From: Candidatus Bathyarchaeia archaeon
Lineage (GTDB): Archaea > Thermoproteota > Bathyarchaeia > Bathyarchaeales > Bathyarchaeaceae
Direction of reading: 5' to 3'
Assembly (NCBI GenBank): GCA_041653695.1
Contig: JBAZEV010000002.1
Span: forward strand, 1-50,528
DNA: 50,528 nt
Shown here: in pieces, positions 961-47,457 of the stretch
Layout: every line of letters starts with the position of its first letter
Position numbering within the stretch: the stretch's first letter is position 1
Program-made: the position numbers and the translations under genes
Notes under the pieces: generated by a model
What the model was told of the DNA's origin: nothing
What the model saw: the letters and a program-made list of their open reading frames with translations, nothing else
The model's database searches: none

Positions 961-1227
961 CTCTGGAATTTGTTTTTATTGGGGAACCTGTGGTTGTATT
1001 AATCGTATAATTTAGAGTTGTCTAATTTATACGCAATTATGGTTTAAAAATAAATTTCACTGGAAAAAATGTGCTTTTAGCTGAATGCTTCCACATTATA
1101 TTGAATCATTGCACCTTTTTTGGAAAAAAGCATAAATAGTGCCTGCCTTCCTAACTTAAACCACATCGTGATCGAGAACCAAATTTTTGGTACTCGCCAC
1201 GAGGCAAAAAACAAAAAAGTGAAAAAA

Positions 1228-4200
1228 ATGCAAAACAAAAAAAACCTCTATTCAGTAATAACTATCGCAATTTTAATTTCAATATTAGCAACTTCTTCAA
1301 TTGTTTACGGTGCAACAATAAACAACTATAACCCAAATGAAGGTACAGTAACAACCACATCTCCCACTTACATGACTTCAGACAATAGCGCATATGCAGC
1401 ATCTGCTGAGTATGGCAACTTATTGAATGAAGCTTATGGCTGGGAGAACCCACACGGTGGTAACATATACAGAACTGGTTTCAACGCAGGACCTGCGCCT
1501 GATAGGCCAGATGTCCTTTTCAAGACATCAAGCGGGTTAGCTATTCCTAAAGTGTTCCTTGGTAGTACACAAGCAACGGATGTAGTAAACCCGTTTGTGA
1601 ACACATTCAGCAGTCCTTCTCCTATCGCAATGGCTGGACAAATAATTCTTTGGGGAAGCATCAGAGTAAACTCTGGTAACTCTACCGCAAGAAACGCTGT
1701 AATCTCAATTAACCCACACACTGGTGCATGCAACTGGGCATCCATCATCGGATATGGACCAACCACTGGTGCAACTAGCGGTTCTAGCATGGCAGGCGCC
1801 GGATACATGTTCAAAGTTGATGATACTCACTTTGCAACAGTTTCTGGTGGACTCTCAATGTTCAGAATTACTGGTGAATTCCTGTGGCGTGATTCTACCG
1901 TTAACCCCAATGCAGTCTATCACAGTATTCTGGGTGTTGGTGAACCAGTCCAAATGGTTTTTGGACCCCACAGTGTCTCTGGTCAATATGTTCCAACCTG
2001 TAGTGGCTGGACCGTAGAAAACCCAGAAACAGACATGGGTGAAGGAAACCGCAAAGTCTTCGATTATATCATGGACGAACCTGGAAACCCAATGCTCAGT
2101 TATGGTGATGGCAAGTTATTGATGGGATCTTACAGCAGTTGTTCAGTATACGCTATTGATATCGCAACAGGTGACAAAGTCTGGGAAACATTCGTAGAAA
2201 CTGCCATGGGTTACATGACCTCCTTTGGTGATGGCAAATTCTTCATCGGAACTCAAAGCATGCACATCTATGCATTGGATTCCGAGGATGGTTCAGTTAT
2301 ATGGCACAATACTGATGGTGTTCGTAACCGAGCATTCAACGTATGGTGCATTAACTACGCCTATGGAAACATCTACCTACACGACCTAGGTTTCGCACGA
2401 ACTGGTGCAGAAAAATGTCTTGACGCTGAAACAGGTAAAATGCTATGGGCATCAACCGCACTCTTTAGCATCGGCTACTACTCAACAGTAGTTGCAGATG
2501 GCAAAGTCTACGGTAACCAAGCAGACGGCTCAACCACAACTGGACGTGAAGCAGACCCAACAGCATTCGCTTGCTGGGATGCATTCACCGGTGAAGTCCT
2601 ATGGAAAGTGAACCAAGCTATTAGCAGCCCAGTAATTGCTTATGGTTGCCTCTACTTCGTGAGTAGTAGCCAATTATGGGCAATGAGCACTGCAGTAGCA
2701 CCCGAAGACTTCAGCATGTGGCGCGGAAGTGTTGAAACACCTAGCGTTGTACTTAGCAAAGGACCTAGTGACATTAGCACTCCTAAATGGGTCTTCACCA
2801 CTGGTGCAGCTGTTATCTCCTCTCCAGTAATATCTGACGGCAAACTATACATCACCTCATGTGACCGCAACGTTTACTGCTTAAACGCATATTCTGGCGA
2901 AGAAATCTGGACATTCCTGACAAACCAACCAAAAATGACCACCTTTGGTAGCACACCTGCCGTAGTAAACGGCAAGGTCGTTGTTGGTCCTGACGACGGC
3001 AACCTATACATCCTAGACGCAGACGACGGCTCAGTACTCAGCACTGTACCTATGGGCACCTACAGACCTGTAGAAGCTTCATTAGGTCAACACAACATCC
3101 GCTCAAGCCCAGTAATCTACAACAACAACATCTACGTAGGCTCACAACACAACGGAATGCTATACTGTGTCTCCCTTAACGGACAAGTACAATGGTCAAC
3201 AGTAATCGCTGACGGCGCACCAATTCTTGGCTCTGTCGGCATTGCTGATAACTACATCTACGTAATGGGTGATGACACAAACTTCTACAAACTTGACATG
3301 AACGGAAACATCATCATGAACTTCCCCATTTCCACCAGTGGAGATAGCTTCTGGTCAGGTTTCTGGGGTGTCAACTCCTATTCGCCAACAATTGACGGTG
3401 ACAGACTATGGCCTGGTGGTACTAACAACAAATTCCGATGCTACAACATAACCGACGGCTCATTAATCTATGAAGGAACTCAACCAAACGTCGCAGGTGA
3501 AACCTCTCACGGTTCATTGCTATATGTGCCAAGCACAGTATTGACTAGCACGGTTAACCAAACATCAGGCGCCACTGTTTCAGGTTCAGGCGGCTTTATC
3601 ATAAGCCAAGCTGGACCTACAGTAGCATGTGCACGCGCTGACAATGGTCTAAACGTCTGGTCTGCTTGGGGTGGCTGGGAAGTTTGGAGTTCACCACTCT
3701 TCGCAGGTATTGGCTCTAGTGCAGTTGTCTACTTTGGTTCTGACAGCTACAGCATTACTGCCCTTGATGCAGCAACTGGAGCACCACTCAGCTGGTACAC
3801 AACTGGTGGTAACATCGTTGGCTCCGCAGCAGTTTGGGATGGTAAGCTATACGTTGGCTCATACGACAACAAAGTCTACTGCTTCGAAGACCACGCAACA
3901 CAAGAGATGACTATCTCTGCTTCAGTTGACACTAACGCAGCTAACGTAGACCAAGACATCACTGTAACTGCTACTCTTACTGGCGTTCCACAAATTGATG
4001 ACATCTACAGCGAAATTGGTGCACCTGCTCCAATTCCACCAATGCCCGACACTGAAATCCTAGTGACATACACTAACCCAGAAGACGTCGAAGCTGAACT
4101 ATCTGCAGTAACCGACAAAACTGGAACCGCAACAGTAACCTTCACAGCTGACATGGCCGGCACATGGAAAGTAATCGCATGGTATATGGGTGAAGATGGA

Positions 4201-4656
4201 CCCGTTTCATCACGCACATATGCATTCAGCGATGAACTAACCCTAAGTGTATCTGAAGGAGAATTACCATCTGCAGAAACATTGATTGCAACTGTTACTC
4301 CTGCAACAACAACACTGAAGCTTGGCGAATCTGTAGTTCTTACAGCTTCTACATCCGGTGGAACAGCTGGCTTCACATACAAGTGGTACCAAATAATCAG
4401 CGGTACTCCTGTTGTGATGTCTGGTGAAACGGCATCAACATTGTTGGTGGCGCCAACCGCAGAAGGAACATATGGATACTATGTTGAAGTAACAGATGCA
4501 GCCGGACAAGTAGATTCAACAGACACTGCACAAGTCAAAATGGGCACAGCAGAAGCCGCAGGCATACCAATGGAATATATCTACGCTATAATCGCTGTCA
4601 TTGCAATCGTCATAATCGTTATCGTAGCATACATGTTGCTGAAAAAGCGCAAATAA
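1228..4656 (+). CDS. cell-surface PQQ-like beta-propeller repeat protein with Ig-like C-terminal domains and a C-terminal TM anchor (paralog 1)
   Basis: ATG at 1228 gives MQNKKNLYSVITIAILISILATSS, a signal/anchor sequence. The body has many (D)GKLY/GKVY...G..Y.LD propeller repeats. The protein ends IPMEYIYAIIAVIAIVIIVIVAYMLLKKRK. The TTG at 1120 in the ORF track only adds a non-hydrophobic leader. Confidence 0.85.
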   Translation: MQNKKNLYSVITIAILISILATSSIVYGATINNYNPNEGTVTTTSPTYMTSDNSAYAASAEYGNLLNEAYGWENPHGGNIYRTGFNAGPAPDRPDVLFKTSSGLAIPKVFLGSTQATDVVNPFVNTFSSPSPIAMAGQIILWGSIRVNSGNSTARNAVISINPHTGACNWASIIGYGPTTGATSGSSMAGAGYMFKVDDTHFATVSGGLSMFRITGEFLWRDSTVNPNAVYHSILGVGEPVQMVFGPHSVSGQYVPTCSGWTVENPETDMGEGNRKVFDYIMDEPGNPMLSYGDGKLLMGSYSSCSVYAIDIATGDKVWETFVETAMGYMTSFGDGKFFIGTQSMHIYALDSEDGSVIWHNTDGVRNRAFNVWCINYAYGNIYLHDLGFARTGAEKCLDAETGKMLWASTALFSIGYYSTVVADGKVYGNQADGSTTTGREADPTAFACWDAFTGEVLWKVNQAISSPVIAYGCLYFVSSSQLWAMSTAVAPEDFSMWRGSVETPSVVLSKGPSDISTPKWVFTTGAAVISSPVISDGKLYITSCDRNVYCLNAYSGEEIWTFLTNQPKMTTFGSTPAVVNGKVVVGPDDGNLYILDADDGSVLSTVPMGTYRPVEASLGQHNIRSSPVIYNNNIYVGSQHNGMLYCVSLNGQVQWSTVIADGAPILGSVGIADNYIYVMGDDTNFYKLDMNGNIIMNFPISTSGDSFWSGFWGVNSYSPTIDGDRLWPGGTNNKFRCYNITDGSLIYEGTQPNVAGETSHGSLLYVPSTVLTSTVNQTSGATVSGSGGFIISQAGPTVACARADNGLNVWSAWGGWEVWSSPLFAGIGSSAVVYFGSDSYSITALDAATGAPLSWYTTGGNIVGSAAVWDGKLYVGSYDNKVYCFEDHATQEMTISASVDTNAANVDQDITVTATLTGVPQIDDIYSEIGAPAPIPPMPDTEILVTYTNPEDVEAELSAVTDKTGTATVTFTADMAGTWKVIAWYMGEDGPVSSRTYAFSDELTLSVSEGELPSAETLIATVTPATTTLKLGESVVLTASTSGGTAGFTYKWYQIISGTPVVMSGETASTLLVAPTAEGTYGYYVEVTDAAGQVDSTDTAQVKMGTAEAAGIPMEYIYAIIAVIAIVIIVIVAYMLLKKRK

Positions 4657-16928: not shown

Positions 16929-19790
16929 TTGAAAGAATCAACTCATTTGCACCCAATTTTTTCGACAATTATTGTAATCATTCTAATCTCAACGATTCTT
17001 TTAACCTCAACAATATATGTTAACGCAAATTCCATTGTTACCCCTGAAGATGGTTACGGCGATTTAATGCAGTACCCAAACTTGGACCCGATTGGAACTA
17101 ACCCCGAACGCACAAGTTACAACGCTGGACCTGCACCCGATACTCCAGAACTATTATGGCAATCTGATGTCACTGCGCCTGAAATTAGTTTGGTAAGCAG
17201 TGGACTTGGAGCCGCCTATTTGGTTGCTGATGGAAAATTTTTCTGTCGTGAATCAGGTTTTGGCGCAAACACCATCTATGCACTTGATGCCATAACTGGT
17301 AGACTGGAATGGGCAACTGACCTGCCTGATGGTGTAACGTTAAGCGGTTTCTTTGGTGGAGACGCTGTGTACCGGATTGATGATACCCATATCGTAACTG
17401 AAGCATCCACCGGACTTGCATGTTTTAACTCGGTTACTGGAAGACTCCTGTGGGTTAACTCCAATGTTACTTCGGGCGGTTCTTTTGCTTATTTCCCATT
17501 TATTGTAGTTCCTGAACTGCATATGTTCTACCGCCAAAATACGCCAGTTGGTGCATATACTATCGATTTAGTTGGTTACGACACATCAAATGCAGACCAA
17601 TGTTTCACTGAAGTTTGGAGATACACCAAGGTTGCCGCGGGGTCCTCTCCGTTATGTTATGGTGACGGAAAAATCTTTGAAAGCTCGACTGGTGACATGG
17701 AAGTTTACGCGTTGGATGCTCTTGATGGCACATTGCTGTGGGAAACACAGGCCAAAAACAGCTTAGGATATGCGGCTTCTTACAGTAACGGAAAACTGTA
17801 TGTAGCCTCAGAGTCGCAGTCACTTACCGTATATGATGCAGAAAACGGAAACGTTTTACGTGAATGGGTCGCCTCAGACCGACCTTTTATGTCCTATACC
17901 GGTGCAGTAGCCTACGGCAGAGTGTATCGTCACGTTCTTGCTGTTCCATCCAGTTATTTTGCTTGTTGGGATGCCGAAACACTGGAACTTTTATGGACCG
18001 CACCCACCTCATATTATATTGGATATTTCCAGTCTGTGGTTGCTGATGGAAAAGTCTATGTTACACAAAGTGAAGCTTCAGATTTAGTTCCTGCTAGTTT
18101 TGCATGCTACGACGCCTTTACTGGACAAAAACTCTGGGATATACCAAAATATTTTGCAAACCCTGCTGTTGCTTATGGAAACCTGTACCTAGTAGCTGAC
18201 GGAATAATATCCTGTTACAGTAACGTCAATCAACCTGCTGGCAAGTCTCCCCAACCGTGGTCTAACTGGCTTGGCAACCCTGAACAACCCGGCGTAGTTG
18301 TTGGAGAGTCTGCACCCAAAAGCATCTCATCTCCCAGATGGTCATATGAAACCGGCGGTGCCGTAACCGGTGGAATAGCTGTTGCTGATGGTAAAGTCTA
18401 CGCGGGATCAAGAGATCAATACCTATACTGCATTGACGCCTATGATGGTAGCTTCATCTGGAAGTTTGAAACCGGATTTAAGTTGCATTCTGGTCCAGCG
18501 GTTGTTAGTGGCCGAGTGTACCTTGGTCCAGACGATGGAAACATTTACTGCTTAGACGCAAATAGCGGTGATGTCATATGGACAACACCTGCAGGCGGAT
18601 TCATACCATACACTAGTGGTCTTGCATATCAAGCACGGTCTTCACCAATCATTGTTGGTGGCAGTCTTTATGTGGGGTCACTTGATGGGAAGCTGTATTG
18701 CCTTAACATCAATGATGGTTCAGTAGATTGGACGTATCAAACAGGTGCTCCAATTACGACTTCTCCAACTGTTTCTCATGGAGTAGTTTACATCGGCGCA
18801 GACAACCAAGTAAAAGCGATATCTGCAACAACAGGGAACCTTCTATGGTCTGCACCTTACAACATAGGAGCCAGAAGTCCACTGGTTGTTGGTAACACAG
18901 TTTACATCACTGTTCAAGTCAGTGTGAGCTTCTTTGTGTCTAATCATTATCTTATTGCTTTAGACGGTTCTGCATATGGTGCACAGCTATGGAACACTTC
19001 TATCAGCGCACAAATTATGGGTCATGGAAACACCGCATATGCAATGACCTACTATGATAGCGTAATTTACACTCCTGCAGGAGCACAAGTAGCTGCTTAC
19101 TCTGCATTGACTGGAGAAAACATATGGTCCAAATTCCTAGGATTTCTAATATACCCTGCTGTAACCGTTGCAGATGACCCAACAGGAACAAAAGTTTACG
19201 TTGGCTCAGATTCTTACTCGATTACTTGCATTGATGCGATAACTGGTGAATCAATTTCGTGGTTCACTACTCAGGGACAAGTTGAATGTGTCCCCGCAGT
19301 TTACGACAGCAGACTTTACGTTGGTTCTGCTGACCATAAAATCTACTGTTTCTATGATGACCCAACTGCACAGATGGCTGCTACTGTAGCTGTTGATAAA
19401 ACTGATGTTGACTTAGGTGACTCTGTAACTGTTTCTGCACAATTGGTTCCAGGGCTTCCTAATGCTTCGATGATTGTTACCTTCACTGACCCCGATGGCG
19501 TTGAAACAAATTTGGATGCTGTAGCAGACAACATGGGATTTGCTACAGTTACTTATAGTCCCAAGGCTGAGGGCAACTGGACCGTAATAGCATGGTATGA
19601 AGGGGCTCAATATACTGGAATAAAATACAGTAACGCCTTCAGTGGGCAGATTACTCTGGAAGTAGTCGACACCACGCCGCCAGTCCCAGATGACAGTGTA
19701 CCCCTAGAATACATTTACGCTGCAATCGGCGTCATTGCCACATTGATTATCATAGTTGTTGCATATATGTTCCTTAAAAAACGGAAATAA
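16929..19790 (+). CDS. cell-surface PQQ-like beta-propeller repeat protein with an Ig-like domain and a C-terminal TM anchor (paralog 2)
   Basis: N-terminal anchor IFSTIIVIILISTILLTS and the shared motif YNAGPAPDTPELLW are present, together with propeller repeats. The protein ends VPLEYIYAAIGVIATLIIIVVAYMFLKKRK. Confidence 0.85.
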   Translation: MKESTHLHPIFSTIIVIILISTILLTSTIYVNANSIVTPEDGYGDLMQYPNLDPIGTNPERTSYNAGPAPDTPELLWQSDVTAPEISLVSSGLGAAYLVADGKFFCRESGFGANTIYALDAITGRLEWATDLPDGVTLSGFFGGDAVYRIDDTHIVTEASTGLACFNSVTGRLLWVNSNVTSGGSFAYFPFIVVPELHMFYRQNTPVGAYTIDLVGYDTSNADQCFTEVWRYTKVAAGSSPLCYGDGKIFESSTGDMEVYALDALDGTLLWETQAKNSLGYAASYSNGKLYVASESQSLTVYDAENGNVLREWVASDRPFMSYTGAVAYGRVYRHVLAVPSSYFACWDAETLELLWTAPTSYYIGYFQSVVADGKVYVTQSEASDLVPASFACYDAFTGQKLWDIPKYFANPAVAYGNLYLVADGIISCYSNVNQPAGKSPQPWSNWLGNPEQPGVVVGESAPKSISSPRWSYETGGAVTGGIAVADGKVYAGSRDQYLYCIDAYDGSFIWKFETGFKLHSGPAVVSGRVYLGPDDGNIYCLDANSGDVIWTTPAGGFIPYTSGLAYQARSSPIIVGGSLYVGSLDGKLYCLNINDGSVDWTYQTGAPITTSPTVSHGVVYIGADNQVKAISATTGNLLWSAPYNIGARSPLVVGNTVYITVQVSVSFFVSNHYLIALDGSAYGAQLWNTSISAQIMGHGNTAYAMTYYDSVIYTPAGAQVAAYSALTGENIWSKFLGFLIYPAVTVADDPTGTKVYVGSDSYSITCIDAITGESISWFTTQGQVECVPAVYDSRLYVGSADHKIYCFYDDPTAQMAATVAVDKTDVDLGDSVTVSAQLVPGLPNASMIVTFTDPDGVETNLDAVADNMGFATVTYSPKAEGNWTVIAWYEGAQYTGIKYSNAFSGQITLEVVDTTPPVPDDSVPLEYIYAAIGVIATLIIIVVAYMFLKKRK

Positions 19791-33301: not shown

Positions 33302-34393
33302 GTGATAAAATTATCTTCTGTGTTGCATCAAAACCCGAGGAAAGTCAAAACTACCATGTTAACAAATGTTGTCGAACAACTCAAGATAACCCTATTCGGA
33401 AAAGACAAACGCTTTGTTTTGCAGACCTGCCTTTTTTTCTTGGCGTTTATTGTACCTTTGGTTATTCTTTACCGGTTTGATGCAGGGTCATTTGATTACT
33501 TGTGGAAAGGCAGAGCACCTTTCGTTCTGTTTTTGTGGTTGCTCGTTTTAGAGACCTCTCTGGGTTGGAAAAAACTCAAAGAAACTCCAACACTTACATT
33601 AAACCTGAAATCTGTTGTAACCTCTGTATTTCTGGTTCTGCCAACTGTTTACGCTGTTGCGTTAAACAACGGATTGTATGATGCTATCATAGAGCTTGGA
33701 CGCGTTGTTGGGGTTCCATCAGCACAGTTTGGCGAATGGTACCTGACCCATTCTTGGACGTTTTCGTTTGAATATGTCCTTTTTGCAACATTTTTTTTGG
33801 TTTCAATATGGCTTTTGTATGGACGTCTGGGGCTCAAAACCTTAGCTGTATCATCGTTCTTTTTGGCGGGTGTTGGCATATTCTATATGATTGACACGTT
33901 TTACCCATACGGGACATTCACTGTTTTGCAGTCGTTTGTTCCAGTAACCGTATTTTTTGCTTCTTCATTACTGAATCTGTTTGGATACGGAACACAAACA
34001 TTCCCCGGCGGAGCAGACGGACTTGGTTTAACAGTTTCATCGGCGACCAGTACCTACTCAGCTATTGTATCTTGGTCATGTGCCGGCAGCCACAGCCTAT
34101 TCATTTACTCTTTTATGATTATGCTCTTTCTCAGGGGAACCAACATAACGCGAACAAGAAAAATAATTTATGTTGTAACCGGTGCGCTTGGAACATTTTT
34201 TGTTAATGTACTCCGTATTGTGGCAATTCTATTAGCAGGAGTCAACAGTGGAGCCTCATTAGCTGCAACATTTCATGAATTTTATGGCGAATTCTTTTTC
34301 ATAGCTTGGATGTTCATTTACCTCTCTGTAATATACTTGTTAGAAACAAGGTTTCTTAGAAAGAACGTGAACACAAAAAATCTTCAGATATAG
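33302..34393 (+). CDS. archaeosortase/exosortase-family transpeptidase (polytopic membrane protein)
   Basis: About eight TM helices. The family catalytic signature is in the conserved order: Cys in SWSCAGSHS (34079-34081), Arg in FVNVLRIV and His in ATFHEFYG. The start may be the ATG at 33356. Confidence 0.75.
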   Translation: MIKLSSVLHQNPRKVKTTMLTNVVEQLKITLFGKDKRFVLQTCLFFLAFIVPLVILYRFDAGSFDYLWKGRAPFVLFLWLLVLETSLGWKKLKETPTLTLNLKSVVTSVFLVLPTVYAVALNNGLYDAIIELGRVVGVPSAQFGEWYLTHSWTFSFEYVLFATFFLVSIWLLYGRLGLKTLAVSSFFLAGVGIFYMIDTFYPYGTFTVLQSFVPVTVFFASSLLNLFGYGTQTFPGGADGLGLTVSSATSTYSAIVSWSCAGSHSLFIYSFMIMLFLRGTNITRTRKIIYVVTGALGTFFVNVLRIVAILLAGVNSGASLAATFHEFYGEFFFIAWMFIYLSVIYLLETRFLRKNVNTKNLQI

Positions 34394-34435: not shown

Positions 34436-35892
34436 CTAAGTAGTTTTTTCTGGTGCGCCTATTCTTTTTAGTGTTCCCCATTTCATTTCTCGTTTTGAGA
34501 GTATATCAAAAAGGCTCTTGATTTTGATGAAATTTCTTAGTTCCTTGAAGCCTACAACGAATAGTGGCGAATAAATTAGAAGTTTCATGTCTTCGTTGTC
34601 CATTTCCACTGCTAAGTAACTATATGTGGTTTGAATCAGCATAAAAACAAGCATCACAATTAGTGCTTGCATTCCATACCCCGTTAAAACTGCAATTGCG
34701 ATCACGATAATTGATACCACAGAAACGAACGGAACAAACACCATTGAAAGTAGTACATATTGGAACGTCAAGTTTCTCAAGTATCCAAATCGTGGATTTC
34801 CAAAAACATTTCTGTGTTTATTATTGTCTGGAATGTTCCTCTGTTCCATCTTGTTCTCTGTTTGATAAAATCTCTCCATGTGTTGGGGGCTTCGGTGTAA
34901 ACATAGGCGTCACTTAATGCTTGCACAACCCTTTTTGTTTTCAAAAGCTTGATCGTGACGTCAAAATCTTCGGTTAATGTATCCCTGTCGTAGAAGCCAA
35001 TTTCTTTTAAGCTTCGTTTCCGAAAAGAAGCTAATGGACCAGGAACCACTGGTACTACACCGAAAATGTCGAAGACCCTTCTGTAAATGTTTTCGTTGAC
35101 TATGTATTCAAGTGCCTGACATTTTGTTACCAAGTTTGTTCTGTTTAGAACCTTCACGTTTCCTGCCACTGCACTGATTGTTGGGTCTTGGAATCTGCTT
35201 ACGATTTTTCGAAGTGCTGATCTGGCAATCATGCTGTCTGCGTCACATGTTATGATGATTTCGCCATTTGCAATCAATATTCCAGTGTTTAATGCACCCG
35301 ATTTTCCACCTGCCTCGGTTCTACGAAGCACCTTTACTCCTTTTGATCTGTAACCCAATGCCAACTGGTACGTTCGGTCCGTGGAACCATCATCAACTAC
35401 TATGATCTCTTTTTTCAGGTAATCAATTTCTAAGATTGCGTCAAGACAACGTTCTATTCCTTTTTCTTCGTTGTGAGCTGGAACAACTAGGGTAACCAAA
35501 GGCCAATGTTGAATGGGCGTTAGGTTCATTTTCAATTCTAGATATCGATGGTATACGCAGAGTGGAAGTGCAAGATAATTTGAGAAAAACTCAACAGTTA
35601 AAGCCGTTGCAAGAAGTGCTGTTGCAATCGAAAGGTACCCAAGATACAACGTGAGCCAACCAACAATTACTGGAATTATGAGCATTGACAAAACCGCGAG
35701 TACTGTGATGTGTCTTGAAGGTTCCCTAATTTTGCTGTTATGAGCTTTCCGGGCAGCAAATAGAAAATATGAAGCCGCTGCGGCTCCTAGGATTAGGCAT
35801 ATCCATGCGATGTAACCTGGTATAACAAAAGCTACTAAAACCAGTTCACACGCTAACACAATAGCAGTTGCTATTAACTTTTTGTTATTCAT
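34436..35892 (-). pseudogene. processive family-2 glycosyltransferase (PgaC / cellulose-synthase-like) interrupted by a -1 frameshift or assembly indel
   Basis: ORF 34777-35892 carries DDGSTD, CDADS and QRTRWNRG, then stops. ORF 34436-34879, in the -1 frame, continues with KHRNVFGNPRFGY plus the expected C-terminal TM helices. The switch point is in the run ACAATAATAAACAC near 34815-34828. Confidence 0.65.
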
Positions 35893-35913
35893 GCCTTAAC
35901 GACCAAATTTTTT

Positions 35914-36930
35914 TCAAGTTTTTTGGCTGGCTTTTTTATCTTGGCTTTTTTCGGTTAATTGGGTGGCTTTTACTCCGAGTTTTAACATTTGAAGTCCACT
36001 TGTTGTTAGTTTGTAGTTATGTAACATGTCTATTCTTGTTTCTTCTAATGTGAATCGTCCGCTACATTTAGAACATCCAAATTTGAAGTTGGGTTGACCA
36101 AAGAAATGTTTGTTGGAACATTTGTACCAGTTTTCGATTTTTCTGTAGTCAACACCTATTACTTTGAGTTTTTTTTCACATTTGGGACAAACTAGTCTGC
36201 CTTCGCCGTTGTCGTATTTGGATCTGAAATCGATGTTGCCACAGTCGAAGTGTTCGAGTGCTTCTTCCTTAGTCATCTGGGAACTTTCACATTCAGGGCA
36301 CTCTAAATAGAGTGTAGATGTTACAACATCGCAGTCTGGGCAAACTATTACTGAACGGGAATGTTCTTCTTCTAAAATTTTTATTTCTGCGAAGCTTTTC
36401 AACGTTGGGACAAGTTGTTCAGTGGGGATTTCGCTTTCTGGGTTTGTTGTTAAAATATTTGTTGATTCTATTTGTATAACTGGGTTTTTAGCGAAAAGGT
36501 CTAGGATTGCTTTTGCTGTTTCGATGTTTACTGTTTCAGGTAACGCTGAGGCAAGTAATATTTCTTTGATGCTATCAATTAAACGTGTTGAGGCAATTTC
36601 ATCTTTGTTCATGTAATCTCGTATACCCAGTTTCATTGCTTCTACTGCAATGTTTTCGCTTCCTTTGCCTGTGACTAAAATAATCGGTGTTTTGTTGTGT
36701 TTTTTTTGTAGTTGTTTAACAACTTCGATGCCGGTCATGTCTGGCAATCTGTAATCCAAAATTATTATGTCAAAGTTTTCTTTTTCAAGTTTCGCTAAAC
36801 CCTTTGCAGCGGTGTCTGTGGCGGTTAACTCAAATTTGGTTGGCATCTTTTCGGTGAGTGAACGTTTTAGAATCAGTTGGTCGTCAGGGTTGTCTTCGAT
36901 ATGTAGTATTCGAATTTTCATTTCGGTCAA
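35914..36930 (-). CDS. response regulator: receiver domain plus Cys-rich (4 x CxxC) metal-binding output domain
   Basis: The REC motifs ILHIEDNPDD and DIIILDYRLPDMTG are present. The C-terminal half has CPDC...CPEC...CPKC...CSKC, as in the TACK-type output domain (named from memory). Confidence 0.75.
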   Translation of the reverse strand: MTEMKIRILHIEDNPDDQLILKRSLTEKMPTKFELTATDTAAKGLAKLEKENFDIIILDYRLPDMTGIEVVKQLQKKHNKTPIILVTGKGSENIAVEAMKLGIRDYMNKDEIASTRLIDSIKEILLASALPETVNIETAKAILDLFAKNPVIQIESTNILTTNPESEIPTEQLVPTLKSFAEIKILEEEHSRSVIVCPDCDVVTSTLYLECPECESSQMTKEEALEHFDCGNIDFRSKYDNGEGRLVCPKCEKKLKVIGVDYRKIENWYKCSNKHFFGQPNFKFGCSKCSGRFTLEETRIDMLHNYKLTTSGLQMLKLGVKATQLTEKSQDKKASQKT

Positions 36931-36952
36931 ATATTTCTTCCTCCTTATTTTT

Positions 36953-37396
36953 TTATGGTATTTTAGAAATCGTTAACCAGTAACGTTTGATTTCCATAAC
37001 TGCTTCAATGAAATCTTCAAAACTTGCTGGTTTTACAATGAAGCTGTTACATCCTAGTTTGTATGCGCGTTCTATATCTTCAGGTCTGCTCGAAGAAGTC
37101 AAAACAATTATTGGAATGCTTTTTAGTTTGTCGTCTCCTTTAATTGTCTTCAAGACTTCAAAACCGTCAATCTTTGGCATGTTCAAGTCCAATATTACTA
37201 AACCCGCTGTTGGGACGTCGATGTATTTTCCTTGTTTACGCAAGAATTGAATCGCATCTTCTCCATCTTCAGTAACGAAAACCTTGTTATGAATCTGAGA
37301 TTTGGTGAACGCTCTTTTGGCTATCATTACATCGTCTGGGTTGTCGTCAACTAACAGAATTGGTTGGTCTATTATAGACTTATTTTTATTTTCCAT
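36953..37396 (-). CDS. single-domain CheY-like response regulator
   Basis: The ATG at 37396 gives MENKNKSIIDQPILLVDDNPDD, and LVILDLNMPKIDG and IPIIVLTSS are present. The longer track ORF would overlap the kinase gene. Confidence 0.85.
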   Translation of the reverse strand: MENKNKSIIDQPILLVDDNPDDVMIAKRAFTKSQIHNKVFVTEDGEDAIQFLRKQGKYIDVPTAGLVILDLNMPKIDGFEVLKTIKGDDKLKSIPIIVLTSSSRPEDIERAYKLGCNSFIVKPASFEDFIEAVMEIKRYWLTISKIP

Positions 37397-37397
37397 T

Positions 37398-40300
37398 TCA
37401 TTCCTCCCCTGATTTTTTCTTTTCTTTTGGTATGTTGAACATGAATGTACTACCTTTACCGGGTGTACTCTCAACCCAGATTTTTCCTCCAAGTTGTTCT
37501 ACAATCTTCTTACAGATTGATAACCCCGCACCAGTTCCTTCATACTTCTTTTCAGTAGGGGCACGTTCGAAAAGGTCGAAAATAATGGTCTGATATTTTT
37601 CTTCGATACCTATTCCGTTATCCCGAACCTTGAACAAGTGTTCGTTTTCATTTTCCTGATACAAAACTTCGATTTTCGGAGTTTTCGACTCGTTAAACTT
37701 TAATGCGTTGCTGATTAGGTTCATGAATAGTTGCTTCATCCAAACTCTTTGAACAAGCAGAACTGGGAGTTTATCAACAACTATCGTTGTGTTATGTTCT
37801 TTAATTGTCATTTCAAGGTCAAGCTGAATTTCTTCTAGTATCTTATTCAGGTCTGTTTGTTCAAATTCAGTATATTTTCGTCCAACACGTGAAAGAACCA
37901 GCAAATCTTCAATCAAAGTATCCATGTGGGATGCCGCGTTTATCATCCTGTTTAGGTAATCTTTACCTGTTTCATCGAGCCTTTGTGCATAATCTTCTAG
38001 TATGAACGAGCCAAATGACCGTATTGTTCTCAGAGGAGCCTTCAAGTCATGAGAAACAACATATGTATAACTTTCAAGTTCCTTGTTCGACTGTTCCAAC
38101 TGGTGCATAGCCGCATCTATTGCTAATTGTGCCCTCTTTCGTTCAGTGATGTCTCGGTCAATGCTTAATATCGCAGGTTTTTGTTGGTATTTTATAAGCC
38201 CTGTGCTAATTTCAATCGGAATTTTTTTTCCGTCTTTGGTTTTGTGTGCTGTTTCAAAGACCAGTTTTTTGTTTTTTTTCACTGATTCAATAAGACCATT
38301 TATTTGTTCCGGAGTTAGGGCATCATCGATATCTAGAATTCCCATCGACAGCAATTCTTCCCTAGAATAACCCAAATTCTTTCCAGCGGCGTCATTGACA
38401 TCAATGAATTTGCCATCAAAATCAATAACCCAGACTGAGTCATTCATTGTATTAATTATTGCTCGATACTTCTCTTCACTATCTAGAAGTGCCTCTTGAA
38501 CTCTCTTTTGTTCAGTCACGTCCCTGAAGAAACCTATTAAAAATTGTTGGTTTCCGATTTTCATGAGTCTGGAACTGATGTCACAATAGATTACTGTCTT
38601 GTCTTTTCTTAAAATTGGTATGTTTCTACTAATAGATATTTTTCTCTCAATCTGTTTCTGGAACTGTTCAAGTGCAAAAGCTAAATCTTCTTTGGGAATA
38701 ATGTCAACAACAGTCAATTTGGGTAACTCGTCAAACGAATAACCTAGAATTTCGTAAATTCTAGGGTTGCCAAAAGCAAATTTCCGTGTTTCAGGATCGG
38801 CAGCAAGAATGCCGTCCGTTGCTCCCTCAAAGATTGTCCTAAATTTTAGTAAACTTTCTTTCAGTTCATTTTCCATTTTTTTGCGAGCTGTTATATCAAC
38901 GGACATTTCAGATGCTGCAACGATTTTTCCATGTTCGTCTCTGATTGCAGTTGCATTAACTTCTAACCAGATGTCTTGACCGTCTGGAGTTTGGACCAAT
39001 TGTTCGTGAATAACCCAGTCTTTTCCGGTCTCAAAAACTTCTTTAACTCCACATCCATGACAAACATCTTCTAACTGATTGAGTGATGAGTAACACTGTT
39101 TTCCTTCTATTTCACCCAAATATTTCTTTAGAACCGCATTTGCCCATAAAACAACATAATCCTTCGATACAACTACAAGCCCAGCATTAATATTGCCTGT
39201 AATATTTTCAAGCATGTCTCGATCCTGACGTAGCGCTTCTTCCACTTCTTTACGGTCACTAATATCTATGGATAATATGAAAAGACCTTCAGGCACGGGC
39301 TCTATGCTGAGTTTAAACCACGCATTCTCACCTGTAGAAAACGTAAATTCATTTTCTATACTTGCCGACACACGTTTTTTCATGCATCTGGTGAAAACCG
39401 AAAACAATTCGGACTTTTCAATTCCGGGATAAACGTCCATAATTGTTTTACCCAAAAAATCTTTTTTAACCAAGCGTCCATGCTTTGCGGCGGCATCATT
39501 AACATATAGATAATGCCAATTATAATCAACAATCTGACAGCCTTCCATCATACTTTCAAGAGTGCTCCGGAAACGTTCCTCAGACTTCTTGAGCAATTCT
39601 TCCGCTTTTTTGCGGTCAGTGATGTCTACAATTAATCCTCTTGAGCCCGCGGGTCTATTTCCGCTAATAATAGGAGTTGCGTGTATAATAATCGGAAATG
39701 TGCTACCGTCTTTCTTCAATGCAGTGTACTCAATAAAACCTACATCAGTTCCAGTCAATATTTTAGTAATTACTTTCTTGGCTCTGTTGCGATCCTTTTC
39801 AATCAGCATCTGAAAAGCAGTCAAACCTTTATCAAAATCATTCTGAGAATAACCAAAACGTTCAAACGCAACATTATTCACGAATGTGAGTCGTCCAGCT
39901 AAATCCATTTCAAAAACAATTTCAGGAAGTAACTCACTTAACTCTCTAAACCGCTTCGCACTATCCTGAAGCGCATCTTGTGCTTTCTTTTGCTCTGTAA
40001 CATCCTTGAGAAATGCTACTATGTATTGTTGGTTTTCGATATTCATGAATTGCGCAGAGATATCAACATAGATTCTTGTTTTATCTTTTCTCAGAATGGT
40101 TTGGTTCCTGACCATTTGTAGTTTTCCTGCCAACTGTTTCTGGAATCGTTCAACGGTCAAAGGTATCTCATCTTTGGGAACATAGTCAAGAATAGTTGAT
40201 TTGAGCAATTCTTCAAGAGGAGCACCGGTTATTTTGACAATTCTGGAATTAGCGAGAACAAATTTCATTGTTTTAGGATCTATAGCAGCAATGCCATCAG

Positions 40301-41915
40301 TTGCGCCCTCAAAAATTGTTTTGAACTTTCCTAAACTATCTTGTAACTTAAGTTCAATTTTCTTGTGCTCAGTTACGTCTCGAAATATAGCTTGAACTAC
40401 TTTCTTATCTCCAAGTTCAATGATGTTAGCTGTTATTGCAGCAGTTCTGATTTCTCCACTTTTTGTAATAATTGGGGCTTCCAGAATATCCCCTTTATTT
40501 TCTTTGACGCGCTGTCTGAAAGCTCTGCCAACTTCATCATTGGATTCTGGGGGATGAAGAATCTGCGAATTTTTACCAATTATTTCTGATTTTGTTCTGT
40601 CAACTAATTTTGTGGCTGCACGGTTACAATCAACTATTATTCCTGTTTTGGCATTAACCAAGAAAATAGCGTCCATCGTCTCCTCAAACTGCCTCCTGTA
40701 GCGCTCTTCTGATTCTCTAAGTTTTTGTTCCACATTCTTGCGGTCAGTTATGTCCCGTGTTATGCCTATAATCTCGATTTTTCCATCTCTTTCAACGGGT
40801 ATGGTGGATGCTTCAACAAAAACTAGCGTCCCATCCTTTTTCATCAATTCTAACTCGTGGAGCCCACTTATTTCTCCATGCATGTTTGGCTTGAACGCTT
40901 CCATAAGCGCTGGTACAGACTCTGGTGGAACAAGAATCCCCAACATGTTTTTTCCGAGTAATTCTTCCTTCTTGTAACCCGTTAATTCCTCTGCCTTTTT
41001 GTTACCATCAAGAAAAGTTCCAGCAATATCCTGCACCCAAATGGCTTCAGGAGCATTATCCAAAAAATATTTGAACCGTTCTTCGGACTCTTGAAGTTTC
41101 TTTTCTACTTGTTTCTGGTCAGTAATATCATGAAATATACCGAGGATTGCTGGTTTATCTTTGTAGATTATGCGTGCAGTACTCAATTGAAACAGTTTCT
41201 TTTTTCCATCTTTTGTAACTGCCTCAATGCGATGCGGCTCAACAAACAAACCCTTTTTTAGTTTCTCAAGATTTTTTGCCAAAATGGTTTTGCTCTCAAC
41301 CGTGGTGGCATGGGTGTTAAGAAAACTTCTTCCCACAAGTTCCTCTTTTGAGAATCCCAGTGTCTCTTCGACTGATTGTGAAATCTCTACAATATTTCCG
41401 TTCATTTCTATGATGACAACCGGCTCTTCCATGATTTCTAATAACGTGTCCAAATGTTGTTTTGACTGTTTAAGTTCCTCTTCCTTGCGTATAATGTCCG
41501 TGAGGTCTTTGCCTGTTGCTTGTGCTCCCACGTAGTCTCCTGATTCGTCAAAGACTGCAACCCCGTTCCATGCTACGGTTCTAAACCCTTTAGGGCTCTT
41601 TACTCGGAGCATGAACCCTTTAACTTGGTTCCGATTTTCAATCAGGCTTTGAAGCGTAAAAACTGCCTTTTTTACATCTTCTAAGTGTAAATAATTTGTG
41701 AAATGAGTTCCCAAAATTTTTTTTCGTGGTTTACCCCAAAACTCAACGGCGGCATCGTTAACAAAATTAAACTTTCCATCTTTATCGATGCTTACAACAA
41801 GGTCATGCATTATTGTTAGCATAATGAGAAGGTAGTTGTCTCTCATTTTTTGTACGTAATCTTCCCTGATTGTCTGTGCCTTCTTTTTCAATGGTTTCAC
41901 CGTAAATTTATCCAA
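37398..41915 (-). CDS. giant multi-PAS sensor histidine kinase (at least nine PAS/PAC modules, HisKA and HATPase_c)
   Basis: Repeated ...DITERKxAEE/DVTEQKK... PAC ends are present. The H-box is VVSHDLKAPLRTI, and the N/G boxes are FMNLISNALKF, DNGIGI and GTGAGLSICKKIV. Confidence 0.9.
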   Translation of the reverse strand: MDKFTVKPLKKKAQTIREDYVQKMRDNYLLIMLTIMHDLVVSIDKDGKFNFVNDAAVEFWGKPRKKILGTHFTNYLHLEDVKKAVFTLQSLIENRNQVKGFMLRVKSPKGFRTVAWNGVAVFDESGDYVGAQATGKDLTDIIRKEEELKQSKQHLDTLLEIMEEPVVIIEMNGNIVEISQSVEETLGFSKEELVGRSFLNTHATTVESKTILAKNLEKLKKGLFVEPHRIEAVTKDGKKKLFQLSTARIIYKDKPAILGIFHDITDQKQVEKKLQESEERFKYFLDNAPEAIWVQDIAGTFLDGNKKAEELTGYKKEELLGKNMLGILVPPESVPALMEAFKPNMHGEISGLHELELMKKDGTLVFVEASTIPVERDGKIEIIGITRDITDRKNVEQKLRESEERYRRQFEETMDAIFLVNAKTGIIVDCNRAATKLVDRTKSEIIGKNSQILHPPESNDEVGRAFRQRVKENKGDILEAPIITKSGEIRTAAITANIIELGDKKVVQAIFRDVTEHKKIELKLQDSLGKFKTIFEGATDGIAAIDPKTMKFVLANSRIVKITGAPLEELLKSTILDYVPKDEIPLTVERFQKQLAGKLQMVRNQTILRKDKTRIYVDISAQFMNIENQQYIVAFLKDVTEQKKAQDALQDSAKRFRELSELLPEIVFEMDLAGRLTFVNNVAFERFGYSQNDFDKGLTAFQMLIEKDRNRAKKVITKILTGTDVGFIEYTALKKDGSTFPIIIHATPIISGNRPAGSRGLIVDITDRKKAEELLKKSEERFRSTLESMMEGCQIVDYNWHYLYVNDAAAKHGRLVKKDFLGKTIMDVYPGIEKSELFSVFTRCMKKRVSASIENEFTFSTGENAWFKLSIEPVPEGLFILSIDISDRKEVEEALRQDRDMLENITGNINAGLVVVSKDYVVLWANAVLKKYLGEIEGKQCYSSLNQLEDVCHGCGVKEVFETGKDWVIHEQLVQTPDGQDIWLEVNATAIRDEHGKIVAASEMSVDITARKKMENELKESLLKFRTIFEGATDGILAADPETRKFAFGNPRIYEILGYSFDELPKLTVVDIIPKEDLAFALEQFQKQIERKISISRNIPILRKDKTVIYCDISSRLMKIGNQQFLIGFFRDVTEQKRVQEALLDSEEKYRAIINTMNDSVWVIDFDGKFIDVNDAAGKNLGYSREELLSMGILDIDDALTPEQINGLIESVKKNKKLVFETAHKTKDGKKIPIEISTGLIKYQQKPAILSIDRDITERKRAQLAIDAAMHQLEQSNKELESYTYVVSHDLKAPLRTIRSFGSFILEDYAQRLDETGKDYLNRMINAASHMDTLIEDLLVLSRVGRKYTEFEQTDLNKILEEIQLDLEMTIKEHNTTIVVDKLPVLLVQRVWMKQLFMNLISNALKFNESKTPKIEVLYQENENEHLFKVRDNGIGIEEKYQTIIFDLFERAPTEKKYEGTGAGLSICKKIVEQLGGKIWVESTPGKGSTFMFNIPKEKKKSGEE

Positions 41916-43204: not shown

Positions 43205-44248
43205 TTATTTTATCCTTTTTATGTATTCTTTGCCTTTGCCTTCAGCAGAACCGACTAATATTCGGTAATGTTGTTGGCTGTTTTCTTTTTCGTTTACTTT
43301 TTCCAGTTTGCCTTTTACCTGTATTGTTTCCCCGTTTTCTGCTATGCTATCATACAGTGTCTCGTAGGCAACTACCTCGGTAACGGGGTGCTGCTGTTTG
43401 CCTTCAATGAATTCTGCATCCTTTATTTTGTAAACTGCTGGAAGAAACAGTGAATCCGTGTTGTCTACTACAACTGCTCGGATTGTAACTTGACCCATTG
43501 GTGTGAACGTTTTTTGTCCATACCTTTCCGTTAATTCACTCTCGAGTTTAACTGGGTGAATGGAAACCCACGTATCCTCAAACCGTCCCAGATTCCATTT
43601 TCTTTCATAGATTCTCGAAGCTTCGTTGGCTGTGACTGGGTAATCCATGGTCTTTTTGTTGCTCCACTCTTCAAGCTGTTTTCCTTCTAACCGTTTGATT
43701 GGAGCTTTAGAACCCTGTTCGGTTAACGCGTTTTTTAGTTTCCAACTGTTTTTTGTGCCATAAACGGTTATGTCAATGTCTGAAAACTTTGGGTTATGAA
43801 TATCTAAAAGAAGTGAACCTGTTACTCCAAACATTTCCTGCTTTATGCCGCTTATTTGTTCCAGTTGCTGGGTGACGTTGACCAGTTTTTGTTGCAGTGA
43901 ATCTAACTGCTTTGTTTCTCTTAGTTGTGCAAGTTTTTGTTCAGGTTTGTAATGTGTTTTAATGTTTTGGAGCGGAACCGCAGTTACCGTGATGTTGTCC
44001 ACGGGTGAATGGAAAATGTACTGTGGGTAATTTTGTTTAAGGAAGTTGAATGTTTCCAGCAGGTTAGGTATCGTATATTTTTGGAGTATTCTGCTGAATT
44101 TTTCTTTGTCTGTTCCCCAGTTTCCCGTTTGCGAAGGTACATACTTGATGTAAGAAACTACCCTGTCGGGGGGATGCATTGTTCCGACTACGCAGAAGAA
44201 GAATCCCTCCTTTGTTTGAAGAAAATCCCTGTCCCTGAAGCTTCTCAT
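43205..44248 (-). CDS. pol-beta nucleotidyltransferase with OB-like C-terminal domain, paralog A
   Basis: The GS-x11-DxD motif FGVTGSLLLDIHNPKFSDIDITVYG lies at 43772-43819. The N-terminal module is RDRDFLQTKEGFFFCVVG. The C-terminal beta-rich segment ends KGKLEKV...YRILVGS. Confidence 0.7.
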   Translation of the reverse strand: MRSFRDRDFLQTKEGFFFCVVGTMHPPDRVVSYIKYVPSQTGNWGTDKEKFSRILQKYTIPNLLETFNFLKQNYPQYIFHSPVDNITVTAVPLQNIKTHYKPEQKLAQLRETKQLDSLQQKLVNVTQQLEQISGIKQEMFGVTGSLLLDIHNPKFSDIDITVYGTKNSWKLKNALTEQGSKAPIKRLEGKQLEEWSNKKTMDYPVTANEASRIYERKWNLGRFEDTWVSIHPVKLESELTERYGQKTFTPMGQVTIRAVVVDNTDSLFLPAVYKIKDAEFIEGKQQHPVTEVVAYETLYDSIAENGETIQVKGKLEKVNEKENSQQHYRILVGSAEGKGKEYIKRIK

Positions 44249-44289: not shown

Positions 44290-45003
44290 TTATGAATACG
44301 CAAAATAGGTTATCGCTATGGCAATCGCGTCATACAATCCATGCATCCACGCCAGTGCAGTGGTGTTCCGGTCTGTTCTTTGCCACATGTATCCCAGAAA
44401 TAGGCTGACAACCGTTACCGGGATTATAGACATCAAAGAGTTCAGTCCATGCAACAACCCGAACATTACTGACGCAACCACAAGACCAACTTTTGGTCCA
44501 TACGAATTTTCCAACCCTCTTTGAATAAAGCCCCTGAATGCTGCTTCTTCGGCTGGTCCAACTAACAAGAATGAGATTAAAAGTAACGCGATTAACTGCA
44601 GTGCATTTTGGGGTAATGTTGCGTCTAAAACTATGTCTGTTGATGGGTCTGGACCAACAATGGTTTCTTGGACTAACGCAATTGCTCCTCCGAGCCAAAG
44701 AAGTAGAACTGCTGCAATGGACAATATTATTATTGTTTTAATGTTTGGTTTTTTGAAGCCTAGCTGTTTTAGTCCTGCTTTGTGTTGTCTGGCGAGTAGT
44801 AACGTGATTGACAGTATTATCACTTCGTTTATTGGAAGCGATAATAATGCAGATGGAAACGGTAAGTTCTCTACGCCAAGTCCTGTTCCAAGCAGTATTA
44901 TTACTAGTATTATGCTGCCCACAATTAGTCCGACTGCTACAAATAGGTAACAGATGAATGCTGACTTGGCTTTCCAAAAAGGCGTGTTAGATGTGTTCTC
45001 CAT
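44290..45003 (-). CDS. CPBP-family (CAAX/Abi-type) intramembrane glutamic metalloprotease
   Basis: All three family motifs are intact: EEAAFRG, FGLLHG and MHGLYDA. Six to seven TM helices. Confidence 0.8.
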   Translation of the reverse strand: MENTSNTPFWKAKSAFICYLFVAVGLIVGSIILVIILLGTGLGVENLPFPSALLSLPINEVIILSITLLLARQHKAGLKQLGFKKPNIKTIIILSIAAVLLLWLGGAIALVQETIVGPDPSTDIVLDATLPQNALQLIALLLISFLLVGPAEEAAFRGFIQRGLENSYGPKVGLVVASVMFGLLHGLNSLMSIIPVTVVSLFLGYMWQRTDRNTTALAWMHGLYDAIAIAITYFAYS

Positions 45004-45220: not shown

Positions 45221-45266
45221 GTAAAACTGTAATATTTTCAGTTTCTGTTGAATAAAGGTGTATTAT

Positions 45267-47456: not shown

Positions 47457-47457
47457 C

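Follow-up and report, generated by a model that had tools for sequence, protein, structure and literature searches.

A conserved C-terminal tail on PQQ-propeller surface proteins of Bathyarchaeia, a candidate membrane anchor private to one expanded family

Bathyarchaeia are among the most abundant archaea of anoxic sediments. Among the tripartite domains described at archaeal C-termini, PEFG-CTERM is the signal paired with thaumarchaeosortase, and the partners of Heimdall-CTERM and Loki-CTERM are presumed Asgard sortases. The three are modelled as TIGR04296, NF045529 and NF033507, respectively, next to PEF-CTERM (TIGR03024), which is paired with archaeosortase C (PMC5244752). In Bathy-6 genomes, up to 46 genes each encode PQQ domains, and nearly all of the encoded proteins have Sec signals and many have Ig-like domains, as reported in a 2024 paper that proposes a role on lignin or in extracellular electron transfer (PMC11697101). 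The words C-terminal, transmembrane and sortase are absent from the main text of that paper. Here, we describe a tripartite tail at the C-terminus of two such propeller proteins encoded on contig JBAZEV010000002.1 of a Candidatus Bathyarchaeia archaeon (assembly GCA_041653695.1), of which positions 1 to 50,528 were analysed (50,528 nucleotides, hereafter the window). A sequence-only reading of the window had proposed the tail as a candidate new sorting signal and had pointed to an archaeosortase encoded in the same window. Judged from its sequence, the tail is a previously undescribed module of the C-terminus that is under strong constraint and specific to the PQQ-propeller expansion of Bathyarchaeia. 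The reading we favour, to which we give an even chance, is that it serves as a type-I anchor, retained in the mature protein and peculiar to a single, greatly expanded family of BamB/PQQ-like propellers in Bathyarchaeia (Bathy-6-type).

The tail of PQQ-propeller protein 1 lies at 4564-4653 on the forward strand (+), where translation gives IPMEYIYAIIAVIAIVIIVIVAYMLLKKRK followed by a stop at 4654-4656, while that of PQQ-propeller protein 2 lies at 19698-19787 (+) and reads VPLEYIYAAIGVIATLIIIVVAYMFLKKRK before the stop at 19788-19790. Both have the layout that the sequence-only reading had described at the extreme C-terminus, a signature (I-P-M-E-Y-I-Y-A in protein 1, V-P-L-E-Y-I-Y-A in protein 2), a hydrophobic helix, an A-Y pair and the basic cluster KKRK. 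The last 30 residues are, as had been claimed, nearly superimposable on diverged paralogs. BLASTP aligns the two tails as a separate high-scoring segment pair with 21/30 identities (70%, E = 5e-10), against an identity of 32% over 977 aligned columns for the bodies of the proteins. Of the 90 nucleotides, 64 are identical, and different synonymous codons encode 10 of the 21 shared residues, which points to purifying selection on the tail rather than recent gene conversion. The best 19-residue Kyte-Doolittle mean is 2.75 for protein 1 and 3.35 for protein 2. A degenerate DNA pattern for the tail (P-x-E-Y-[IVM]-Y-A-13aa-A-Y) has two matches in the window versus 0.00 expected from shuffles, and none of the other open reading frames (ORFs) in the window has a comparable end.

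Both tails close PQQ/BamB-like β-propeller surface proteins. Protein 1 comprises 1142 aa from the first ATG (1228-4656, +), within an ORF spanning 1120-4656, and consists of a Sec-type signal peptide (MQNKKNLYSVITIAILISILATSSIVYG), propeller repeats, Ig-like and PKD-like domains, a short linker, and the tail. It scores 137 bits on PF13360, and its matches to K319L-like PKD, Ig_7 and Big_1 are weak. Protein 2 (16929-19790, +; 953 aa) has a TTG start, backed by two orthologues (P0121 and L017) that begin MK.. or MR.. at the same place, and is composed of a signal peptide, propellers, an Ig-like domain (residues ~822-896), a TTPPVPDDS linker, and the tail, with a PF13360 score of 204.9 bits and, as in protein 1, weak matches only for the Ig-like or PKD-like part ahead of the tail. 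On the PQQ-dependent dehydrogenase model TIGR03075, proteins 1 and 2 reach 59.5 and 85.1 bits, respectively, below its cut-off of 480, and the BamB family cut-off is also far above their scores. The closest PDB structures of both are BamB and designed or archaeal 'cell surface protein' propellers, with true quinoproteins at ~30 bits or less. This better match to BamB and 'cell surface protein' propellers makes an enzymatic dehydrogenase label doubtful, and the published 'PQQ-dehydrogenase' label for the Bathy-6 expansion may overstate the sequence evidence. An N-terminal signal peptide, a single C-terminal helix and a KKRK end give both proteins the features of type-I single-pass membrane proteins with a predicted topology. 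Their genes sit among translation and replication genes, in a window that also carries archaeal housekeeping and C1-pathway genes and in which no tRNA genes were found.

The consensus of 77 distinct tails is [IFLM]-P-[MIVT]-E-Y-[IV]-Y-A-x-[VI]-[AG]-[VI]-I-x-I-x-[IV]-[IV]-x-x-x-A-Y-x-[YFLW]-x-K-[KR]…, or, in short form, φ-P-x-E-Y-[IV]-Y-A, ~13 hydrophobic residues, A-Y, a K/R cluster, and the stop. The P, E, Y, Y, A and A-Y columns are partly fixed by the search pattern, and they are equally conserved in 24 matches derived from a profile. Columns outside the pattern are conserved as well, with A/G11 in 96%, I/V13 in 100%, I/V15 in 98% and K/R27 in 98% of the 77 tails. The identity of the transmembrane (TM) core is 44% between proteins with 25-35% body identity, compared to 29% for shuffled cores, and it exceeds the shuffled control in every divergence bin. 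Pro, Thr, Glu, Gly and Asn abound in the linker ahead of the tail. The signature has no invariant Cys and is not Gly/Ser-rich. In general form, the tail resembles a sorting signal, being a tripartite domain at the extreme C-terminus with a signature that directly abuts a hydrophobic helix of 21-22 residues.

Every search for further tails was seeded from PQQ-family tails and covered libraries, genomes and loci rather than complete proteomes. The strict DNA pattern, with seven fixed residues and a fixed 13-residue spacing, misses tails with 12-residue cores or with altered P, E, Y or A, which make up ~20% of the known tails. Within this coverage, more than 90 further proteins carry the tail, all of them from Bathyarchaeia and each with the tail at its very end, so it does recur beyond the two window proteins. 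A HMMER profile of the two window tails gave 24 matches at E ≤ 0.001 among 1.84 billion representative proteins, each ending no more than five residues from the protein C-terminus. Twenty-two of these are PQQ-propeller/Ig-like proteins or C-terminal fragments with the same Ig-like domain, recognised by the shared pattern …TFT.PDG….ATTD..G.A…P…G.W.V.AWY.G…. A 45-aa alignment of the two tails, run as a word-indexed search against 5.8 billion proteins, returned zero candidates. When one genome for each of 185,579 species was scanned with the strict pattern, 23 matches were obtained, 14 of them true tails with helix, K/R cluster and stop. All 14 come from five Bathyarchaeia or 'uncultured archaeon' metagenome-assembled genomes (MAGs), with at least five in DYS_6, and all 14 proteins belong to the PQQ-propeller and Ig-like family. 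The other nine are chance matches in seven bacteria, one Woesearchaeota MAG and one Thermoproteota MAG, none of which shows the succession of helix, K/R cluster and stop. Metagenomic contigs scanned with the same pattern yielded at least 80 loci, with 40 true tails and one read-through among those listed, and each of the 36 metagenomic tails with at least 30 aa of upstream body matches the PQQ family (BLAST, 32-99% identity). Past the inner A-Y, true tails run on for 6-14 residues that include a K/R cluster before the stop, the exception being L040, which reads past the usual stop.

The correspondence was also followed in the reverse direction, using 50 distinct PQQ-family C-termini from the collected loci that reach the Ig-like domain. 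The strict motif is present in 41 of them and variants in seven, namely A for P, W for Y, D-Y-V-Y-L, E-Y-I-C-A, E-Y-L-Y-A, G-Y for A-Y, and E-Y-A-Y-A with a longer cytoplasmic end. The last two are not true exceptions, as one has the motif with read-through past the stop and the other is broken by a sequence gap. Tail and PQQ family correspond one-to-one in all samples examined, and the tail, conserved in sequence and C-terminal in position, is restricted to one family and one lineage. Its presence on several unrelated protein families was not found in the PQQ-tail-seeded searches of library, genomes and metagenomes, and with no such occurrence the tail does not show what would set a general sorting signal apart from an anchor belonging to one family. 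A literature search on the motif EYIYA or EYVYA returned only name matches.

A few ORFs stand apart from this pattern. Two of them are the remaining matches of the HMMER profile. In a 63-aa ORF (P0125), the N-terminus of a shikimate dehydrogenase runs into the tail, and this ORF was regarded as a pseudogene or chimera; the other, P0140 (L025 451-756), is a lone tail-bearing ORF of 101 aa on a 1.3-kb contig that could be assigned to no family. Both are probably gene remnants or assembly chimeras. A likeness of the 101-aa ORF to the end of a C25-type peptidase, which would have made a second architecture, was set aside, as Pfam gave no support and the ORF stands isolated on its short contig. In addition, one MAG with PQQ tails encodes a propeller and Ig-like fragment (L014 3-608, +) whose C-terminus is another kind of helix tail, …PAYTTTDLAIIAAVVVAIVIGIVNLWALRKR, preceded by a P/E-rich linker like that of the PQQ tails, which indicates that a related architecture can carry another anchor.

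The signature had been said to fall outside the named CTERM classes, and this stands, since no NCBIfam or Pfam model is clearly at its cut-off on the two window tails or on 39 collected tails. On the window tails, the best NCBIfam model is GG_III-CTERM (NF041738; cut-off 22), with 11.0-12.8 bits for one tail and 19.7 bits for the tail of protein 2. The match covers helix and basic cluster only (model positions 2-27), starting after P-x-E. Heimdall-CTERM and the LPXTG anchor reach ~13 bits, whereas PEF-CTERM (cut-off 23 bits) and PEFG-CTERM have no match on the two window tails, and Pfam has none on the tail. Among the 39 collected tails, the most frequent weak matches are to generic helix-plus-basic models, namely LPXTG_anchor (24 tails, best E 0.003) and GG_III-CTERM (22 tails at E < 1, best E 1.5e-4), followed by Loki-CTERM (eight tails, best E 0.018), Heimdall-CTERM (six tails, best E 0.04) and PEF-CTERM (four tails at E < 1, best E 0.0053). 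By estimate, the best GG_III-CTERM E-value corresponds to ~21-22 bits, so one collected tail may reach that cut-off. PEFG-CTERM is not among the 25 families listed of the 46 matched by any of the 39 tails.

An archaeosortase-family gene had been placed in the window at 33302-34393, and the family assignment is secure, as TIGR04178 gives it 49.6 bits against a cut-off of 23, and PF09721 38.3 bits against 25.7. The ORF runs from 33302, and the real start is at 33356, giving an exosortase/archaeosortase-family protein of 345 aa (33356-34393, +). On the thaumarchaeosortase model TIGR04297 it scores 104.6 bits (cut-off 250), and on the archaeosortase C model TIGR03762 33 bits (cut-off 100). It belongs to a Bathyarchaeia-specific subfamily whose nearest relative is thaumarchaeosortase, although it does not reach the cut-off of that model, and many of its orthologues are labelled 'thaumarchaeosortase' by the Joint Genome Institute (JGI). 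Cys242, Asn284-x-x-Arg287 and His307 are conserved in at least 98% of 120 orthologues, matching the Cys/Arg/His set attributed to the exosortase/archaeosortase family (Haft 2023). Its best 120 matches include homologues of 65-82% identity with the NCBI label Candidatus Bathyarchaeota, and no second sortase paralogue was seen among these matches. No solved structure is related to the protein by sequence.

Synteny around the archaeosortase is conserved, with cysS, mtd and msrB on one side and ftr, a gene for a 348-aa protein, an Rce1-like protease gene and an Asn-synthase-like gene on the other. The order msrB - sortase - ftr is kept in the complete 2.15-Mb Bathyarchaeia genome CP122380.1 and in other MAGs. 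Judged by this gene order, the archaeosortase is a housekeeping-context gene, conserved across Bathyarchaeia and unlinked to the PQQ genes, which in the window lie on the same contig at 13.5 and 28.6 kb from it. A PQQ gene adjoins the archaeosortase in none of the loci compared, and the 21 kb around it in CP122380.1 contain neither a PQQ-family gene nor a PQQ-type tail. The species scan likewise gave no strict-pattern tail for CP122380.1, which is only suggestive, as the membership of this genome in the scanned set is unconfirmed. Both tail and archaeosortase are Bathyarchaeia-specific, and archaeosortase orthologues with the conserved synteny also occur in genomes where no tail was seen. The orthologues traced to NCBI assemblies (P0002, P0117 and P0029) belong to other genomes than the tail-positive MAGs. 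In CP122380.1, a 251-aa secreted protein encoded 8 kb from the archaeosortase (L001/L002 18782-19537, reverse strand, -) ends in …DIPEGIHVITVVGLVIAVTIATTLWKHKK, a P-E-G, helix and basic tail that matches no CTERM model.

A different tail class emerged when ~400 kb of Bathyarchaeia loci were screened for proteins ending in any helix with basic residues after it. The screen recovered the PQQ tails and, in addition, [IV]-P-E-F-P tails, followed by a TM helix and YRRK, on secreted right-handed β-helix (NosD-like) proteins. Two of these proteins (L101 130-1248, -; L074 3684-4715, +) are encoded on contigs that also encode a PQQ-tail protein, and their tails score 15.2 and 19.9 bits, respectively, over the full length of the PEF-CTERM model. 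A homology search with the L101 protein showed its family to be very large (6394 matches among 8000 scored candidates), the members named by NCBI being Candidatus Bathyarchaeota. By regular expression, 85 of the best 120 relatives (P0145-P0264) end in …[IV]PEFPSFLILPLFMIATLLAVIVYRRKH-type tails, and most of the other tails among these 120 are close variants (SEFP, TEFP, PECP). When 43 PEFP-type tails were compared with CTERM models and matches counted at E < 0.1, Heimdall-CTERM matched 18 (best E 2e-4), PEF-CTERM 14 (best E 6.6e-5), Loki-CTERM 12 (best E 0.0015) and PEFG-CTERM two (best E 3.1e-4). Scores of this strongly conserved tail class stay slightly short of the PEF-, Heimdall- and Loki-CTERM cut-offs. 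The PxEYIYA tail is on none of the 120 β-helix proteins, and the PEF-type tail is on no PQQ-family C-terminus examined. Homology of the two tails was rejected, as an hhalign comparison of their profiles gave a probability of 4% and found nothing in common beyond the basic cluster. Since the nearest sortase subfamilies are paired with PEF-type signals and PEF-type tails are abundant in the same genomes, the PEFP class is the better candidate substrate. The PEFP tails are probably sortase substrates and, going by model scores, look like one half of an uncurated sortase/signal pair whose other half is the sub-threshold archaeosortase.

For the PQQ tail, the favoured reading of a private type-I anchor would work as follows. 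Sec export of the propeller protein would be directed by the N-terminal signal peptide, and the hydrophobic segment would act as a stop-transfer sequence, with the K/R cluster kept in the cytoplasm in line with the positive-inside rule. The propellers and the Ig-like domain would then be held outside the cell on a P/T/E-rich stalk, and the helix would be retained in the mature protein. The Pro may cap the helix, with Glu-Tyr-x-Tyr placed at the outer membrane interface and Ala-Tyr-x-[YFW] at the inner one, forming two aromatic belts. Aromatic residues at both interfaces would explain part of the conservation of the tail. A stripe of small residues (A8, A/G11, A19, A22) suggests helix packing, possibly against another copy of the helix or a membrane partner. 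Such an anchor could have been inherited through the expansion of the PQQ family. Several points weigh against it. The P-x-E-Y-[IV]-Y-A signature is ~95% conserved across paralogues with ~30% body identity, and a pure anchor is not obviously in need of such juxtamembrane conservation, whereas recognition by a membrane enzyme would yield it. The layout of the tail also matches that of exosortase/archaeosortase substrates, in which a low-complexity linker rich in Thr, Pro and Glu leads into the signature and the helix comes directly after it (Haft 2023). Finally, the PEF tails of the β-helix family are equally conserved, so that conservation of a tail across a whole family is no argument against processing.

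These points feed the sorting-signal reading, according to which the P-x-E-Y signature of a family-dedicated, archaeosortase-dependent signal would be recognised at the outer face, the helix removed, and a lipid or surface anchor added. This reading is doubtful in our judgement, and the same doubt attaches to its fuller version, in which an uncurated Bathyarchaeia archaeosortase accepting both PEFP-type and PxEY-type tails, or a second enzyme, would anchor dozens of propellers to lipid or wall. In support of the sequence-only reading stands a tripartite module that belongs to no named model, occurs on more than 90 proteins, and does so in a lineage with an intact archaeosortase, whose conserved Cys/Arg/His set is encoded on the same contig. 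The tail is at the extreme C-terminus in every case and present in many copies per genome, as seen from the strict matches in DYS_6 and the PQQ-domain gene counts cited above (PMC11697101). Its geometry is like that of PEF-type tails (a hydrophobic residue, Pro, Glu-aromatic, ~19 hydrophobic residues, Tyr, basic cluster), and the four collected tails that touch PEF-CTERM do so weakly. What was not supported is its use as a general signal, as the PQQ-seeded searches found it on one protein family only. The link drawn between tail and archaeosortase is likewise unsupported beyond the shared contig. The sortase adjoins no PQQ gene and keeps its housekeeping synteny, and the same genomes abound in a classical signal of another kind, the PEF type. 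Moreover, one sortase would need to recognise two unrelated signatures, with no second paralogue at hand among its best 120 matches.

Another intramembrane enzyme might instead process or shed the propellers, for example a rhomboid or, by analogy with myxosortases, the CPBP/Rce1-like intramembrane glutamic protease encoded at 44290-45003 (-; PF02517 65.1 bits). Apart from the archaeosortase and this protease, the window encodes no intramembrane-protease candidate, and the neighbourhood of the two genes is conserved in other Bathyarchaeia. CPBP proteases are predicted sorting enzymes of some tripartite C-terminal signals (Haft 2023), and for MYXO-CTERM this role has reportedly been demonstrated (PMC11980579). 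However, CPBP genes are common, and the tail has neither the invariant Cys so far seen in myxosortase-type signals nor the Gly/Ser-rich character of rhombosortase signals (Haft 2023), which leaves this explanation improbable. That the likeness of the tails is an artefact of recent duplication, gene conversion or TM composition is hard to credit at all. Segments rich in Ala, Ile and Val do give ~29-32% identity from composition alone, but the TM cores exceed their shuffled control throughout and the signature is kept in proteins from different MAGs and metagenomes. Together with the codon differences at nearly half of the identical residues and the 32% identity of the bodies, the shuffled control excludes both gene conversion and a compositional artefact.

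The surroundings of the archaeosortase hold further features. Between archaeosortase and ftr, a cassette at 34436-41915 (-) encodes a GT2 glycosyltransferase, a TackOD1 response regulator, a receiver-only regulator and a 1505-aa multi-PAS histidine kinase; the loci L106 and L111 share it, and L001/L002 and L110 lack it. A sortase gene next to one for a processive glycosyltransferase is reminiscent of exosortase/exopolysaccharide (EPS) loci. The GT2 gene (chitin/cellulose-synthase-like; 34436-35892, -) is split into overlapping ORFs at 34777-35892 and 34436-34879, while its orthologues in L106 and L111 are single proteins of 488-495 aa, so the window copy is frameshifted, either as a pseudogene or through an assembly error. 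Three paralogues of ~347-376 aa (43205-44248, -; 46413-47456, +; 47410-48540, +) flank the Asn-synthase-like gene (45258-46310) and the CPBP protease gene. Two of the three have a weak match to the nucleotidyltransferase family PF01909 and the third has none, and the arrangement is kept in other Bathyarchaeia.

Whether the PQQ-like proteins are anchored by a helix or processed and anchored by lipid decides their location and the way in which they might bind substrates or transfer electrons. If the tail is merely an anchor, the finding is an ordinary one save for the unusual conservation, and the tail still provides a simple sequence tag for spotting this propeller family in metagenomes. For the curation of a new sortase/signal pair, the uncurated archaeosortase subfamily and the sub-threshold PEF-type tails of Bathyarchaeia would be more promising.

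Compared with known systems, the tail shares with the PEF-, PEFG-, Heimdall- and Loki-CTERM domains its tripartite build at the very end of the protein, a Glu-aromatic pair at the outer membrane edge that is preceded by a hydrophobic residue and Pro, a helix that follows without spacer, a basic cluster after the helix, and a low-complexity linker in front of the signature. In contrast to these domains, it has an extra residue between Pro and Glu, a signature that runs on as Y-[IV]-Y-A, an Ile/Val/Ala-rich helix without Pro or Gly, a conserved inner A-Y and a Lys-rich basic cluster, and it is confined to one family and sub-threshold on their models. The PGF-CTERM/ArtA system of Haloferax volcanii is similar in combining a large secreted surface protein, a Thr/Pro-rich stalk, a signature, a helix and a basic tail with an archaeosortase of the Cys/Arg/His type; however, the tail has no P-G-F and no match to that model, and ArtA substrates span unrelated families. 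Cleavage and lipid attachment are demonstrated for ArtA (Haft 2023) and would be a prediction for the tail described here. Of the curated models, the GGIII-like transmembrane region (NF041738) scores highest on the helix and basic end, yet its match leaves out P-x-E, and the two window tails stay below the 22-bit cut-off, with the best of the collected tails perhaps at about that value. With ordinary type-I anchors, the tail has in common the Sec signal of its protein, one C-terminal helix of ~21-22 residues, Lys/Arg placed according to the positive-inside rule and Tyr at both interfaces, differing in a juxtamembrane signature unusually conserved across paralogues of ~30% identity. The carriers themselves are most like the Bathy-6 'PQQ-dehydrogenase' expansion, being of the same family, extracellular, with Sec signals, multiple PQQ_2 propellers, Ig-like domains and tens of copies per genome (PMC11697101).

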